A DNA stretch of 64,000 nucleotides from Candidatus Eiseniibacteriota bacterium. GTDB lineage: Bacteria > Eisenbacteria > RBG-16-71-46 > CAIMUX01 > VGJL01. Numbering within the stretch: the stretch's first letter is position 1; each line of letters starts with the position of its first letter. The stretch lies in NCBI GenBank assembly GCA_041946735.1, contig JBHGAY010000025.1, positions 9,249 through 73,248 of the forward strand, written 5' to 3'. This document shows positions 45,001 through 51,000 of the stretch, one piece after another. Position numbers: made by a program.

Positions 45001-48000
45001 GCGTGCGAATGGAATGATCGGAAGCTCCCCGGCGATGGTCGAGGTGATGCGCCAAGCGCGTCTCTTGGCGCCCACGGACCTCACGCTTCTCGTTCAGGGA
45101 GAAACGGGTACGGGGAAGGAGCTGCTCGCCCAGGCTCTCCACAAACTCTCCGATTTCAGCGGAAGATTCGTGGCGTTCAACTGCGGGACTTGCCCACCTC
45201 ACCTCCTGGACGCCGAGCTGTTCGGTCATACGCGCGGAGCATTCACCGGCGCGCGGACGAGCCGGCGCGGCCTCGTTCGCACCGCGGAAGGCGGGACGCT
45301 CTTCCTCGACGAGATTGGGGAGCTTCCCGCGGAATCCCAGGCACGCCTGCTACGTCTCATGGATTCTGGAGAGATTCGGCCGCTGGGCTCCGATGAGGTG
45401 ATGAAGGTACTGGTACGGATCATTGCGGCGACGCACGTCGATCTCGCTGAGCTCGTCATTGAGGGCCGCTTCCGGCCGGATCTCTTCTTCCGCCTCTCAA
45501 ACATCCGGTTGGTGATGCCGCCGCTGAGAAGACGCGGCGCTGACATTCGGGAACTCATCGAGCATTTCGTCGAAGAAGCGCGGCGTTCGAACCGGCCGAG
45601 TTTCCCGGGATTCAGCAAGCCGGTGATCGACGAGTTGCGGCGCTATTCCTGGCCGGGCAATGTTCGTCAGCTTCGGATGGAGATCCTGCGACTCGCCACG
45701 CTCTACGAGGGCGAGGAACCCATGGAGACCTGGCCGAGGCAAGATCAGGATCGGGATGCTCGAGTGATTCCGCCCATGCAGGCAAAAGGCATCCTCGCCG
45801 ATCCCGACCGACTCCGCACTCTCATCAGGGACTGCGATGGCGAGATCCAGATGGTCGCGCGAAAACTGGGAGTATCTCGCACGGGTCTTTACCGGATCTT
45901 CAAGCGCGTAGGTATCGATTCGCGGAAAATTCGATCGGAGATCGACGAGTACCGGGACAGAAACTGGCTGATCTGAATTCGCCGGCTCATCGACACCTAG
46001 CCGGCCGGTTTGCTCGCCTCTTCGATCCGACGATCCGACGATCCGACGATCAGACGATCAGAAGGCGTCTCTCATCCAAGGCTCCGGTCCCGCAAAGATC
46101 CGTGTCGCGTCCCGGAGCGCCTCATCCCCCGCCTCGATCCAGCCGAGGTCTCGAAGCTGTCGCGGTGCGAGAAGACCGCTGAAGAGCGGCGCCATTCCCC
46201 GAATCGTGGCTCGCAGGTCTCCTCTCCCGCCGCTCACCACCGTCCCTGTGCCGTCCACCACTCGCAGAATCCACCGCCCCATGTTCGCCGGGATGACCTC
46301 GTCGTCGACGTCGAGGTGCAGTTCCGCCTCGAGGCCGGGGGGATACCCGCGCATTTCGAGAGCATTCGGAAGGTCGACGATGCGAAGGAGCCAGCGCTCC
46401 CCGCGCCCCGACCGGTACACCTGCTCTTCGGGCAAGCAGAGAAGCGGTTCCACTTCCGCGCCGTGCCAGGTGATCTCGCGCGCAAGCGACCGGTGATCGG
46501 CAAGGAAGGACATCATCCGCCGATACGCGCTCGGCGATAGTGCCGCCCAGTCACGCACCCGCATGTCATAGCCGGACGTCCCCGGCGACTGCGTGAAGAT
46601 GATGTATCCGTCGGGGCTGGCTTCCGAGCCGATCCGGTAGGCATGGACGGCTTCGCCTTCCCACGATCGCAGGAGCCTCTGCCACAGTCCGGGGCAGCGG
46701 TCGAGATTCCCGTTCGTCCGCTCCGCCTGCAGACGCGCCATCGCCGCGAAATTCTCGGGTGCAGGCTTCACCGGCTCCATTCGGATCGAGCGATCCCACT
46801 TCCCCCAGAACCCGGTCAGCGGCATGGTGTGCTCGGCACGGTTTCCCGCCTGCTCATAGCCGACCGACCGATACAGATGTTGCGTGGAGGCATACAGCGC
46901 GGACAGAGGGTGCCCGTGCGCGTGCAGATCCTCGAGCACACCGATCATGAGCGCGCGTGCCGCCCCGGTCGCCCGTTCCTCCGGCGGCACGCCGACGGCG
47001 GCGATGCCCCCCATCGGGACTCTCCGGCCGCCGAAGTACTGGCCCATCCACAGAACCGCCAGACCCGCAACCATGCGCCCCTCGGTCCAAAGCGTCCGTA
47101 GGTTTGCCTTGCCGACCAGATCGGACCATGGCTTCCACCGGGCGAGCGGGAAGGCGAAGCATTGCGTGAGGATCTCGCGGAGGCGCTCCTCTTCGACGGA
47201 CTCGACATCAGGATCGGCAAGCGGTCGGTACTCAAAAGAGGGATCCACAAGGCTCAAGGCCGGACTCCTTGGTTGATTCTGTTCGGGGCGATTCCCCATG
47301 AGGTTCCGTTGGCCGCATCGGCCCGCTACGGCCGTCTTGGACCCGCGCGCGACGGCCGTCACAGACCCCCGCGCGACGGCGATCTTAGCCCGCGCGGCGC
47401 GCTAGCGGTAGGTCGCCCTGATTGCACCCCAACTTCGGATCTCCACGGCCACCGGAACGCACTCGTTGGGCATACAGTCGCTCCACGCGCCCTGCGGCAC
47501 ACCTCCCGAAGCGACGCATTCCATCTCGACCAGCTCCATGCAGCTCCCGTCCGCGAAGCAGCAGGCGAAGACCGGCGTGTTCGGGCAAGGATTGGGCTCA
47601 CACAGCGTCCCCGGACCTTCCCACGTCCACGAACCACCCGCCGCGTAGCACTCCAAGTAGCTCACGGCCCGGCAGACGCCGTCGAGAAAGCAGCACGCCC
47701 CGGGGACCGTTTCGCACCGATCCGGCTCGCACGCATGACCGTCGATCACACCGCCGTCGTTCAAGCATTCCTCGGGTAGCAGGTAGAGTTCGCACGAGCC
47801 GTCCTCGAAGCAGCAACCGACGAGCGAGCAGGAGCAGGGATTCGGGTCGCAGGGGACTCCCTCGGACCACGAGCAGTAGTCCGGGCGCGCCAGGCACTCC
47901 ACCTCCGTCTCGACGAAGCACTCGCCGGCGTCGAAACAGCAGGCGCCTTGCGGCGACGCGCAGAGATTCGGCTCGCAGAGGTTCTCCGCGGGAGCGCCAC

Positions 48001-51000
48001 CCAAGTCGTAACAATCCTCGCCGCAGTAGAAGACGCGGCAGGATCCATCCGGAAAGCAGCAGCCGACCGGCTGCGGGCACGGGTTGGGGTCTCAGTCGGC
48101 TCCAGGGTAGAAGGCGCAACCGCCGGTCGCCCAGCAATCCGCCTCCTCTACCATTTGGCACGATCCGTCCGGGTAACAGCAGATGCCCACCTCGGCCTTC
48201 GCAACACCGGCAACGGCACCGGCCAGCACGATGGCCGACACGACAGCGACACCGACGATCGTCACTCGATACATGGACGCTCCTTCTGGGACGACGGCGT
48301 CTCAAGGCGGGCCGCTAGGATGAATGAGAGGGGGGACCTGGCCCGTAACGGGGTACGGCCTGCCCCGAAACGAAGCCGAGAAGAGTATATCGCCGAACCG
48401 AGCGAGGCGATACGATCCGTTCACCTTGCCGATGGGCCCATGGGCGGCAGCCCGTTGGACCGGGCGATCGGAGATCGACGGCCGCGCGTTTCATCCTCCT
48501 CGCCCGCGTCCGGCCGTGACGGCAAACGTCAGGAGGTGAGAATGTTCCGGAGGATTGAAGACTTCCTCGTCGGCTACAGGTACGAAAGCCAATCCACCCT
48601 GAAGCTGCTCGACCAGCTGACGGACGCCTCGCTACTCCAGAAGGTCACGCCCGACGGACGCTCCCTGGGACAGCTCGCGTGGCACATCACTCTCACGCTG
48701 GGAGAAATGCTCGGACGGACCGGCCTCTCTCCCGCCTGCCCGGGACAAGATGCCGCAGTGCCGGCGAGCGTCCGGGAGATCCGGGAGACGTACGCCCGCG
48801 CGAGCTCGAGCGCCCTCGAGCAGATCGAGGCGCAATGGACCGACACGATGCTCGACGAAATGCTCGACATGTATGGACAACAGTGGCGGCGCGGAGCGGC
48901 GCTCGCCGCGTTCACCGCCCACGAGGCGCATCATCGCGGACAGATGACGGTCCTGATGCGCCAGGCTGGACTGAAGGTCCCCGGGGTCTACGGCCCGGCG
49001 CGCGAGGAATGGGCGGAGTTCCACCAGCCGGCTCCGTGGTGAGATGCCTCACCTCTTCTCACCCCTGAAGCTTCGCTCCGTCGAGATCCCGAACCGGATC
49101 GCGATGAGCCCCATGTGCACCTACTCGGCCGGCGAGGACGGAATCGCCACCGACTGGCATCTCGTCCATCTTGGCAGCCGCGCAGTCGGACGTTGCGGCC
49201 TGCTCCTCACCGAGGCGACGGCGGTCACCCCGGGCGGCCGCATCAGCACCGGCGATCTCGGCCTCTGGGACGACGCGCAGATCGAGCCGCTCGCCCGCAT
49301 CGTTTCCTTCTGCCGCGCGCAGGGATCCCGCATTGCCGCTCAGCTCGCTCACGCCGGCCGCAAAGCGTGGTCTCCCCATAAGGGCGCCGGGCCCGACATT
49401 CCCGTCGGACCGACCGACGTCCCGTTCGATGAAGGCTGGGTCGCCCCGCGCCCGCTCACCGCCCAAGAGATCGAGGCGGTCATCGTCGCATGGCGTGAGG
49501 CGGCCCGGCGCGCGCTCGCCGCCGATTTCGACGCCATCGAGATCCATGCCGCGCACGGCTACCTGCTCCACCAGTTCCTCACCCCGCTCGTGAACCGGCG
49601 GATCGACGAGTACGGCGGCAGTCTCGAGAACCGCGCGCGCTTGATGCTGCGTGTGGCGGCGGCCGTCCGCGAGGTGTGGCCCGCGGACCGGCCGCTCCTG
49701 CTACGCGTGTCCGCCTTCGAATGGACGGAGGGAGGCCTGACTCCGGCGGACTTCGTCGCCCTCGCGCCCCGCATGCGCGAAGCCGGGATCGACATGGTCG
49801 ACTGCTCCTCGGGCGGAGCGATCCCGATGGGGCCCCCGGCCGGACGGATCGGCCCCGGCTACCAGGTGCCGTTCGCCGAGGAGATCCGCGTCGGAAGCGG
49901 GCTGCCGACGATCGCCGTCGGCCTGATCACCGAGCCGGAACAGGCCGACGCGATCGTCCAGAACGAGCAGGCGGACATGATCGCTCTCGGCCGTGAGCTG
50001 CTGCGCGAGCCGTACTGGCCTCTCGCCGCGGCGAAGCGCCTCGAGCATCCGCTCGAATGGCCGTGGCAGTATCTCCGGGCGAAAGGCTAGGCCCAGGCGC
50101 CAGGAATCTCGCTATGTCGCCTCACGCCTCCATGGCACCGGCCGACGAGAGGATCGCCTCGACGTTCTGCGGGGCGAAGAACGCCGCCGGGGAGATGGTC
50201 CCCGCGTTCATCCGAGCGAAGTCGTCCATCGCTTTGGGATTACCGTGGATCGCTCCGAAAAGCCGCTGCATCTCCGGAGGCGGCGGCTCCAGCGTCGCGA
50301 GCTGGAAGGTGAACTCGTACATCGCGAGAACACGCTCGTCGCGTTCCCGCTGATAGTCCGCCATCGCCTGCTCGAACGGCCGCGTACCACGGAACGACTC
50401 GTCCAGCGCCGCCGCGCACCGCTCTGCATCCAGGAAGGCGTCCTGGATCCCCTGCGCGGTGATCGGATCCTTGTTGTACCCTGCGTCGCCGACGAGTGCC
50501 CATCCGGGACCGTACGGCTTGCGGAAGAATCCGGGCAAAGCGGCGCCCGCGAACCGGCTCTCGCGCTTCGCGCCGCGCACTCGCTCGGCGAACTCGGGTG
50601 CGAGATTCAGGTTCTTCCAGTAGTTGCCTTCGATGTCCTTCTTGTTCGTCTCGAACTCCGCGTACGGCCATCCGGCGATGATGAGGGTCAAGCCGTCGTG
50701 CGTCGGAGCAGCCGCGAAACCGCTGCGCGGCCGGATGTAGTTCTCTAGTCGTCCGTTCATCGGGAGCCCGCTCCAGTAGGCGTAGTAGCCGGCGAGGACC
50801 GGCTCCTTCTCGTTGTACTGCTCGGGTTCCACGGCCTCCGCCACCTTCGAGTATCGACCATCGGCCCCGATGACGACTCGCGCTCGCTCCGTCACGGTCG
50901 TGCCGTTGTGCGATCGTCCACGGATTCCGGTAACCCGGCCATCCTCGAAGAGGATCTCCTCCACCGTGAACCCTTCGCGCACCTCGGCCCCCGCCTCGGC

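Follow-up and report, generated by a model that had tools for sequence, protein, structure and literature searches.

Does the in-frame TGA at positions 48092–48094 (minus strand) end a short gene, or does it encode selenocysteine (Sec) within a larger exported repeat protein? The window, meaning the whole 64,000-nt stretch of DNA analysed, comes from an uncultured bacterium of soil and waste in Candidatus Eisenbacteria. To our knowledge, this phylum has no cultured member. A literature search found no paper mentioning Eisenbacteria together with selenocysteine or selenoprotein. Judging from sequence, we consider the TGA to be a genuine selenocysteine codon with a probability of roughly 80%, on the combined grounds that the in-frame TGA is conserved, Sec machinery is present, a SECIS-type hairpin follows and the frame downstream is under purifying selection.

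Reading frame and conservation across the TGA

Under translation table 11, the minus strand at this locus yields two ORFs, one of 60 aa that ends at the TGA (48092–48274) and one of 200 aa with a TTG start (47402–48004). If the TGA is read as U, a single open frame of 290 residues results, with U61 as the sole recoded codon. The whole coding sequence (47402–48274, minus strand, as are all features below) has 290 codons including the one Sec-UGA, ends in a TAG stop (47402–47404) and was codon-aligned with its ortholog. Residues 1–27 (48194–48274) are a predicted Sec-type (secretory) signal peptide, with MYR, a hydrophobic stretch and AKA before E; the cleavage site was placed by eye. In an AF2 model of the 290-aa protein, pLDDT is below 50 at residues 1–4 and 7–21, in the signal-peptide region.

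Public gene calls carry the 200-aa downstream piece as a separate protein. Along with the two table 11 ORFs, this fits a real stop: a gene for a 60-aa secreted peptide, then a separate or dead 200-aa frame, the hairpin described below being a by-product of encoding PQPVGCC. We regard this as improbable, mainly from comparison with the ortholog G005:C28:110605-111474 (minus strand), which belongs to another genus of Candidatus Eisenbacteria and is 56% identical at a dS of ~1.35. It reads FIPGAD-TGA-DPNPCPQPVGCCFPDGSC, and the codon alignment puts its TGA in the identical column, bearing out the initial annotation's claim that the ortholog in the closest family genome (there G017, here G005) shares the TGA. 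Despite the divergence, neither copy has a further stop or frameshift, 39 of 42 Cys columns are conserved, and dN/dS is 0.26 downstream of the TGA versus 0.22 upstream. A dead frame at such a dS would not stay open in two genera with these values. The 30 codons directly after the TGA show conservation at the protein level (pN 0.17) and precede any conserved start codon. In the host genome, the reading frame first offers a start-type codon (TTG) 31 codons past the TGA; G005 has CAT at the aligned codon and its first start-type codon 77 codons on. Separate downstream translation therefore leaves the conservation of modules 2 and 3 unexplained. On its own, the downstream piece would be without a signal peptide, yet it has export-associated modules and the C-terminal tag.

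The genome is metagenome-assembled, and the TGA might also come from faulty sequencing or assembly or from a nonsense mutation of recent date. The host assembly (G000) is in 72 contigs, and a relative, G031 (56% complete), has a homolog whose in-frame TGA proved to be a frameshift artefact. Here, the identical TGA occurs in a different genus, the frame is unbroken on either side, and three public runs, each from a different study, gave contigs that span the TGA without any differing letter (runs X1 and X2 may be the source sample, and run X5 covers the TGA by only a 151-nt contig). An error or recent mutation is therefore very improbable.

Within the order's 35 genomes and a species-representative genome collection, the TGA occurs in only two, G000 and G005, so the caveat in the initial annotation that just one other genome shows it stands. 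A degenerate U-D-P-N-P-C-P-Q-P pattern matched only G005 in the species-representative collection, and a single metagenome match was out of frame and unrelated. A looser pattern matched five of the order's 35 genomes, three of them by chance outside any repeat. No ortholog was found in G001–G004 with the query used.

A SECIS-like hairpin and the selenocysteine pathway

A SECIS-like hairpin, 5'-GCAGCC GGUC GGCUGC-3', lies at 48059–48074, with 17 nt from the UGA to its stem and 23 nt to its loop. The bacterial SECIS model given in the Fig. 2 legend of a 2026 review (PMC13188914) has a loop of 3–9 nt, a stem of 4–16 bp, a UGA-to-loop distance of 16–37 nt and an MFE of at most -7.5 kcal/mol, with a G at loop position 1 or 2 and, in most cases, G or U next. 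The hairpin agrees with the model in every respect (loop of 4 nt, stem of 6 bp, GG then U, spacing of 23 nt, -10.2 kcal/mol). The initial annotation had left the hairpin unexamined; the check supplies one of SECIS type, set in the gene's best-conserved nucleotide stretch and with a GGUC loop of the type found in an independently conserved selenoprotein of this lineage.

Folded alone (16 nt), the hairpin has -10.2 kcal/mol, and a 57-nt segment has -17.5 kcal/mol. The pair probability is 0.87–0.98 in downstream-only contexts and drops to about 0.4 when 60 nt upstream are added. A 71-nt region folds no better than shuffled sequences (z = +0.68; 155 of 200 shuffles at least as stable), and an Rfam search gave no match. 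This unexceptional stability of the region as a whole would also fit a real stop, as would the fact that complementary codons of a conserved peptide make up the hairpin arms. The hairpin bases also encode P-Q-P-V-G-C, the linker and first Cys of module 2. They are letter-identical in G000 and G005, hence there is no compensatory change, and their conservation is in part due to that of the encoded peptide PQPVGCC.

Synonymous conservation is raised around and after the UGA, over residues 58–79 (48038–48103). At identical-residue columns, codons are identical in 18 of 22 cases there versus 72 of 133 elsewhere (one-sided Fisher p = 0.012). Over the 30 codons that follow the TGA, pS is 0.39, compared with 0.63–0.66 elsewhere. 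The gene's best 45-nt windows, which start at the TGA (alignment columns 59–61), are identical at 44 of 45 positions, versus 62% overall.

By criteria set after the hairpins had been inspected, in the host genome a stem of at least 6 bp with a GGUY tetraloop at a like distance follows 494 of 1,123,954 codons, 6 of 10809 Cys codons and 0 of 1269 TGA stops of long ORFs, the last count speaking against a real stop. A looser definition, likewise set afterwards, finds one after 27 of the 1269 TGA stops and 1 of 42 paralogous Cys sites.

The host genome encodes the complete Sec pathway: a tRNA-SeC with anticodon TCA, selA (478.9 bits against a cut-off of 267.9), selB (349.1 bits against 242.25) and selD (388 bits), which has an in-frame TGA of its own. 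In G005 and in four of five family genomes, selA also scores above the cut-off. Homologs of a second exported protein, G000:C45:59549-60331, occur in each of the five sister genomes, and 7/7 matches have one TGA. In all six examined loci of this family, as well as in G000 itself, GACUG-GGUC/GGUU-CAGUC comes after the TGA, its loop 17–20 nt downstream. Several TGA-containing genes besides the present one bear the same hairpin type. The genome also encodes several exported selenoproteins of the thiol-disulfide oxidoreductase type, with U-PYC, U-SGC, U-GFC and U-GYC motifs.

Downstream structures are able to promote read-through at stop codons, and tRNA(Sec) can be charged with Cys where thiophosphate takes the place of selenophosphate. 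Both effects would fit read-through that needs no selenium, by a near-cognate tRNA (Trp, Cys or Arg) aided by the hairpin or by Cys-tRNA(Sec) under selenium scarcity, and the conservation data by themselves show read-through only and not the inserted residue. The complete Sec pathway argues against it, as do the several TGA-containing genes with the same hairpin type, the agreement of the hairpin with SelB-type SECIS constraints and the Cys at the aligned position of homologs, a classic Sec/Cys pair. We give this explanation only a slight chance, marginally below that of a real stop, and prefer a Sec codon.

Gene callers cut the present TGA-containing gene into two, and the GGUC-loop SECIS of this lineage could be used for re-annotating genes of this kind. 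The present locus fell below the coding-score filter of a genome-wide TGA scan.

Position of the TGA in the six-cysteine module

Using a repeat profile derived from 233 units of homologous proteins, we detected six units in the 290-aa protein (27.6–51.3 bits). They are module 1 (residues 30–68, 48071–48187, 46.9 bits), module 2 (residues 70–106, 47957–48067), module 3 (residues 109–148, 47831–47950), module 4 (residues 153–188, 47711–47818), module 5 (residues 191–231, 47582–47704) and module 6 (residues 236–274, 47453–47569). One 290-aa gene with six Cys-rich repeats, uninterrupted when the TGA is read through, is what the initial annotation had described, and this description holds. Module 2 has one extra Cys (FY-C), kept in G005. 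In the AF2 model, the roughly 40 residues and six Cys of each unit are arranged as a beta-hairpin, a short helix and a strand. Searches of the protein against Pfam and NCBIfam gave no match at E-values up to 1.

In the profile alignment, the TGA (PGAD-U-DPNPC) falls on the fifth Cys column of module 1. Of 957 distinct units drawn from homologs, G000 itself and relatives' loci, 945 have Cys in this column. The C/U-[DE]-P-[ND]-P-C site occurs 43 times in G000, with a Cys codon in 42 and TGA in one. These counts agree with the earlier claims that the TGA replaces a repeat cysteine and that the family has Cys elsewhere. Across the CCFxDGSC...C[DE]PNPC module family in Eisenbacteria and relatives, 875 of 888 full units have all six Cys. 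Module 1 has seven Cys or Sec residues, the six canonical ones and an extra cysteine, C53 (GG-C, codon at 48116–48118), eight residues before U61. C53 is conserved in G005, and its profile column is Cys in 0 of 957 units.

Proposed mechanism and comparison with known systems

We propose that the hairpin would recruit SelB with Sec-tRNA(Sec), so that UGA would be decoded as Sec instead of causing termination. The product would be a 290-aa precursor, and removal of its signal peptide would give an exported protein of about 263 aa that consists of six ~40-aa six-cysteine modules, the short WGxI[KR]xxYR tag and nothing else. Both actual Sec insertion at codon 61 and export of the product are what we infer. 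At the fifth half-cystine position, Sec may form a selenylsulfide cross-link within or beside module 1. Selenylsulfide is the most likely chemistry because the Cys5 cysteine of nearly all other units is presumably disulfide-bonded; selenium would then sit in a bridge rather than in a free reactive selenol.

Given Sec, a structural or stabilising selenylsulfide has about an even chance. Somewhat less likely is that Sec and the unusual Cys53 close by make up a reactive or redox centre, and other roles account for the rest. More broadly, and tentatively at a little under even odds, the protein may be a natural case of encoded Sec at a non-active-site half-cystine of an extracellular cysteine-knot module, serving as a selenylsulfide staple, as a folding catalyst or seed, or as a Cys53-paired selenol. 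The staple would be reduction-resistant, the catalyst or seed would act in oxidative folding of a protein with 40 half-cystines, and the selenol would be a reactive surface group.

Sec in a structural half-cystine position is unusual, a caveat of the initial annotation that we share. In almost all catalogued bacterial selenoproteins, Sec belongs to an active site for redox chemistry or metal binding, and we did not find the present selenoprotein family catalogued. If the residue is Sec, selenium lies at the position of a disulfide-forming cysteine of related proteins, not in the active site of an enzyme. Such a use, at a conserved half-cystine in a secreted repeat module, would broaden what bacteria are known to do with selenium and add an undescribed selenoprotein family from Eisenbacteria. 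In the part of the literature consulted here, Sec in bacterial selenoproteins is described as ‘in their active sites’ (2026 review, PMC13188914).

The gene resembles bacterial selenoprotein genes in which SelB reads a SECIS inside the coding region, E. coli fdhF being the textbook case. As in those, a stem-loop whose small apical loop contains G and U comes no more than a few tens of nucleotides after an in-frame UGA. The gene also shares Cys in homologs, the presence of selA, selB, selC and selD, and agreement with the consensus constraints. The SECIS loops of fdhF and Moorella likewise read GGUC. It differs in that the putative Sec lies outside any known catalytic or metal-binding site, and in having repeat modules only and no Pfam or NCBIfam family.

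With exported selenoproteins of the thiol-disulfide oxidoreductase type, the protein shares export and Sec where relatives have Cys. Those listed in the 2026 review include DsbA-like, TlpA-like UGC and thioredoxin-like UxxC proteins (PMC13188914). Unlike thioredoxin-fold selenoproteins, the 290-aa protein has U-D-P-N-P-C, no UxxC or CxxU, and no thioredoxin-type domain by Pfam. On this motif and the lack of Pfam or NCBIfam matches, the protein was not classed as a thioredoxin-fold redox selenoprotein.

Synthetic selenoconotoxins and Sec-BPTI carry Sec in place of a half-cystine in a small disulfide knot. Synthetic selenylsulfides or diselenides are harder to reduce and steer oxidative folding. 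Those peptides are laboratory-made, whereas the present case, if true, is natural and genetically encoded in a bacterium, and would be the natural counterpart of the selenylsulfide engineering that chemists use for stabilising or folding disulfide-rich peptides.

Weak structural matches of the modules include Kazal inhibitors, follistatin, FSTL1 and the complement C6 FIM (best Foldseek E-value 0.22; VIA Z 2.0–3.3 over 31–53 residues). The module Cys spacing, CC-x5-C-x7-C-x13-C-x4-C, presumably differs from Kazal spacing. No function is transferable from these model-based matches.

A parallel within the lineage is the ‘G-x-G-[IV]-[GS]-U ... DWVQS’ family of the second exported protein above. 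It has the same C-terminal tag, WGx[VI][KR]xx[FY]R, no Pfam family, and the same SECIS type, in which a GGUC tetraloop on a 6–7 bp stem follows the UGA by about 20 nt. The family is unrelated in sequence and lacks six-Cys modules, and its TGA is kept in all six family genomes, as opposed to two here. If our reading is true, this family, the present protein and other TGA-bearing tagged proteins would mean that the Eisenbacteria lineage decorates an exported, tag-sorted surface proteome with selenium.

The protein ends in SWGAIRATYR (47405–47434), so the C-terminal WGAIRATYR tag reported earlier is confirmed. This end fits WGx[ILVM][KR]xx[YFW][RK]-COOH, a motif that terminates 72 ORFs in G000 and has only five non-C-terminal occurrences. 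In alignment A1, W282 and G283 hardly vary. The WGxI[KR]xxYR tag is common to the 290-aa protein and some 70 other G000 proteins.

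A reading frame that continues through the TGA

Under translation table 11, the minus strand of the target locus (window 47402-48274) holds a 60-aa ORF (48092-48274) that stops at a TGA (48092-48094) and, in frame with it, a 200-aa ORF (47402-48004) with a TTG start further downstream. If the TGA is read through, a single frame of 290 residues results, with one recoded codon at residue 61. The initial annotation had described this frame as an exported protein of six Cys-rich repeats, with selenocysteine (Sec) in place of a repeat cysteine. Its account is right in every detail we checked, including the 290-residue frame, the six units and the C-terminal SWGAIRATYR. 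With a profile made from 233 repeat units of homologs, the six units fall at residues 30-68, 70-106, 109-148, 153-188, 191-231 and 236-274. Judged by eye, the first residues resemble a Sec-type signal peptide: MYR is followed by a hydrophobic segment, and AKA precedes an E. In a TGA scan of the whole genome, the gene did not reach the threshold set for a codon-usage score.

The TGA is not an assembly error. The whole stretch is present in contigs of two sequencing runs from different studies with no differing letter (either may be the source sample), and a 151-nt contig from a third study, in a run labelled landfill metagenome, covers 47995-48145, with the TGA and the hairpin described below, without a difference. 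The two runs with full-length copies are labelled industrial waste and soil; the source organism or a near-identical strain seems to be widespread in landfill, waste and soil habitats. No RNA runs are listed among the sequencing runs that match the stretch.

The sole clear ortholog lies in a relative of a different genus (genome G005), with 56% identity (E = 1.7e-94; the next matches are at 1e-45 or weaker). Its TGA occupies the same alignment column with identical flanking residues, which bears out the shared codon reported for the closest-family genome. At dS ~1.35 the two genes are old relatives. Neither copy has another stop or a frameshift, and 39 of 42 Cys columns are kept between them. 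The dN/dS ratio is 0.26 downstream of the TGA and 0.22 upstream, values that we regard as the same. The first start-type codon 3' of the TGA is a TTG 31 codons on in the source genome, where the aligned codon of the ortholog is CAT; in the ortholog it comes 77 codons on. Modules 2 and 3 are conserved while the start codon is not shared, so re-initiation cannot explain these two modules. Taken together, the open frames, Cys columns, dN/dS and start-codon placement rule out a pseudogene and make two separate genes, as the table 11 ORFs would have it, very unlikely. A tblastx comparison of 8 kb of the window with the G005 loci found nothing conserved outside the gene itself.

The pattern U-D-P-N-P-C-P-Q-P has a TGA-bearing match in G005 only across a species-representative genome collection, in keeping with the initial caveat that a single other genome shares the TGA. 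One match in a metagenome collection (L044) falls in an unrelated region, out of frame, and a looser pattern run on 35 genomes of the order gave three extra matches (G027, G016 and G034) that lie outside the repeat context and are due to chance. We also rejected an in-frame TGA in a multi-module homolog from a 56%-complete genome (L019, G031:C28:35880-39602). This gene has at least two frameshifted stretches, one of which creates the Sec-mimicking TGA; the frameshifts are likely assembly error or decay.

The six-Cys unit and its cysteines

The unit, CC-F-x-D-G-S-C ... C ... GG ... C-[DE]-P-N-P-C, is strongly expanded in the order, with matches in 36 of 41 genomes searched and about 100 in some. 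According to named database matches and its genome-collection record, the lineage belongs to Candidatus Eisenbacteria. The units of homologs usually stand C-terminal to other domains and ahead of the same C-terminal tag, as seen in the Pfam columns of homologs and the consensus of alignment A1. We collected 957 distinct units from homologs, the source genome itself and the loci of relatives. Each of the six Cys columns is Cys in 94-99% of them, and all six cysteines are present in 875 of 888 complete units. As the initial annotation proposed, the TGA falls on a repeat cysteine: it is the fifth Cys column, where 945 of the 957 units have Cys. Among the 43 C/U-[DE]-P-[ND]-P-C sites of the source genome, 42 use TGC or TGT and one uses TGA.

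The proposed Sec thus takes the place of a half-cystine that hardly varies. With 39 Cys and one Sec, the mature protein has an even total, and so does the G005 protein once its signal peptide is set aside. From the position and the even count, the simplest chemistry would be a selenylsulfide within the module-1 knot. Searching for the disulfide partner of residue 61 through Cys co-loss gave no signal: 13 of the 888 units lack Cys3 only and the rest keep six. Both orthologs also keep two unusual cysteines. One, C53, directly follows the GG of module 1, eight residues before the Sec position, in a column that is Cys in 0 of 957 units; the other lies in module 2, where the corresponding columns are Cys in 3-5 of 957. 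These two may pair with each other, or the Sec may have C53 as its partner or resolving cysteine. A structural or folding-related rather than catalytic Sec is a possibility, and for this protein the more interesting one.

AF2 (71-sequence alignment; mean pLDDT 82.9, pTM 0.41) gives a confident beads-on-a-string model in which each unit is a β-hairpin, a short helix and a strand; pLDDT is below 50 at residues 1-4 and 7-21. Structure searches give weak matches (best Foldseek E-value 0.22; VIA Z no higher than 3.3), too weak to assign a known fold or to dismiss one. Several of them are to Kazal, follistatin and factor-I modules, which is a resemblance and not a classification. The 200-aa ORF alone matches unnamed protein-atlas clusters only; its structure matches are mostly Planctomycetota proteins with similar modules alongside enzymes, at TM <0.5 and thus a lead only.

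The C-terminal tag WGx[ILVM][KR]xx[YFW][RK]-COOH ends 72 ORFs of the source genome and occurs only five times elsewhere; CCF units are present in 17 of the 72. In the extended form [ST]WGx[ILVM][KR]xx[YFW][RK]-COOH it lies at window 47405-47434 (minus strand) in the target and at 71 other ORF ends. It has the look of a signal that sorts or anchors a large set of exported proteins, and its distribution suggests an undescribed short C-terminal sorting signal of the lineage. The tag differs from the FlgD_ig and Por_Secre_tail C-terminal domains found on other proteins of the genome.

A hairpin downstream of the UGA

The initial annotation had left the hairpin check open. A hairpin, 5'-GCAGCC GGUC GGCUGC-3' (window 48059-48074, minus strand), lies 17 nt 3' of the UGA. 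Folded alone it has -10.2 kcal/mol. Its pair probability is 0.87-0.98 in downstream contexts of 60-120 nt and about 0.4 with 60 nt of upstream sequence added. The bacterial SECIS consensus stated in the Fig. 2 legend of a 2026 review (PMC13188914) has a loop of 3-9 nt, a stem of 4-16 bp, a G within the first two positions of the loop, as a rule with G or U next, a UGA-loop distance of 16-37 nt and an MFE of at most -7.5 kcal/mol. The target hairpin agrees with that legend throughout (4-nt loop, 6-bp stem, GGU, 23 nt, -10.2 kcal/mol). Positions 47900-48300 have no Rfam match, even with E-values of up to 10 allowed.

No nucleotide stretch of the gene is better conserved than the one that holds the hairpin. 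Between the orthologs, the top 45-nt windows are 44/45 identical, compared to 62% overall, and begin at the TGA (alignment columns 59-61). Where the residue is identical, the codon is too at 18 of 22 columns in the hairpin stretch versus 72 of 133 elsewhere (p = 0.012), and pS falls from about 0.65 to 0.39. The hairpin is letter-identical in the two genomes, so covariation is absent, and its arms also code for conserved peptide. Taken as a whole, the 71-nt region has no greater stability than shuffled sequence (z = +0.68).

Independent evidence for this hairpin type comes from a second exported protein of the source genome (G000:C45:59549-60331, minus strand; L057), which shares the C-terminal tag and carries the motif G-S-G-I-S-U ... 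DWVQS. Homologs occur in all five sister genomes (orthologs L082-L087), with one TGA each in 7 of 7 matches, and the protein, with the consensus motif G-x-G-[IV]-[GS]-U ... [YW]DWVQS, belongs to no known family. In the six loci examined and in the source genome, GACUG-GGUC-CAGUC follows the TGA (GGUU in one), with the loop starting 17-20 nt downstream. This looks like a conserved, undescribed selenoprotein family, and its conservation is evidence that SECIS elements with a GC-rich, 6-7 bp stem and a GGUC tetraloop work in the lineage.

We counted such hairpins across the source genome. Since the criteria were set after the hairpins had been seen, the rates serve as description and do not amount to a formal test. 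By the strict definition, a hairpin has a stem of 6 bp or more and a GGUY loop that starts 14-26 nt past the codon. Such hairpins follow 0 of 1269 TGA stops in long ORFs, 6 of the 10809 Cys codons and, over all codons, 494 of 1,123,954 (4.4e-4). They follow 38 TGA triplets in any frame, with convincing coding context on both sides in only three: the target, the C45 gene and C38:704. A looser hairpin (3-5 nt loop containing GU or GG), a definition that also covers the target, is found at a rate of 2.1-2.4% whether stops, Cys codons or all codons are counted, at 1 of 42 paralogous Cys sites and at 9 of 44 candidate in-frame TGAs. The nine include selD, three U-x-x-C proteins of thiol-oxidoreductase type and four proteins with no recognised redox motif (an A2M protein, a β-helix protein, the C38 protein and the C45 protein).

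Selenocysteine machinery and other TGA genes

The source organism is able to make selenoproteins. Its genome has a tRNA-SeC with anticodon TCA and selA, selB and selD well above curated cut-offs, selD with an in-frame TGA of its own; selA is above cut-off in four of the five other family genomes, G005 included. We scanned for in-frame TGAs flanked on either side by coding signal and then searched Pfam; this recovers thioredoxin-type U-PYC and U-SGC proteins and also U-GFC, U-GYC, U-PPC and U-PYC proteins.

We estimate a probability of about 0.8 that the TGA of the repeat protein encodes Sec. The observation made in the initial annotation is confirmed and its interpretation supported. Insertion would be by the ordinary bacterial mechanism. 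The protein lacks a Pfam or NCBIfam family, which separates it from thioredoxin-type redox selenoproteins. The catalogue text of PMC13188914 does not contain 'repeat', 'cysteine-rich', 'secreted' or 'macroglobulin'. The main text of the BSepDB paper and the species table of its supplement name no Eisenbacteria and no repeats. No papers combining Eisenbacteria with selenocysteine or selenoprotein were found in the literature searched. Given the ordinary insertion mechanism, absence from the catalogue texts consulted and the lack of a thioredoxin-type family, we file the protein as a new family of selenoproteins whose SECIS is canonical.

Several other genes of the genome have in-frame TGAs. A 646-aa protein with a Por_Secre_tail domain (G000:C38:125-2065, plus strand; L056) has its TGA directly after a Cys (TVGC-U-GESP), followed by a GGCGGA-GGUC-UCCGCC hairpin. 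No homologs spanning the TGA region were found in the five sister genomes, which leaves this TGA a candidate Sec codon. Outside the window, a 1216-aa α-2-macroglobulin (G000:C34:210205-213855, plus strand; L064; Pfam A2M, TED domain 4e-41) has an in-frame TGA in LPHG-U-FEQS, at what we take to be the thioester cysteine of the CxEQ motif. This TGA is followed 17 nt downstream by a hairpin of 7 bp and a GGC loop; no homologs were found in 40 relatives at E up to 1e-20. A β-helix/Chlamydia-PMP-repeat protein ending in the WG tag (G000:C16:30657-31637, plus strand; L054) has an in-frame TGA (VCT-U-PGD) followed by a 7-bp hairpin with a GUC loop. Among 63 homolog matches listed from the five sister genomes, one (G002:C13) also has a TGA, not necessarily at the corresponding position. 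The window itself contains a second in-frame-TGA gene at 5975-7015 (minus strand; G000:C18:15223-16263, L049), encoding an exported 346-aa protein with the motif FG-U-PPC-WDTRCGL. Its paralog (G000:C24:2113-4176, L050) has S-U-PYC plus a FlgD_ig domain, and in both genes a short CCCG-GUG-CGGG hairpin lies about 20 nt 3' of the UGA.
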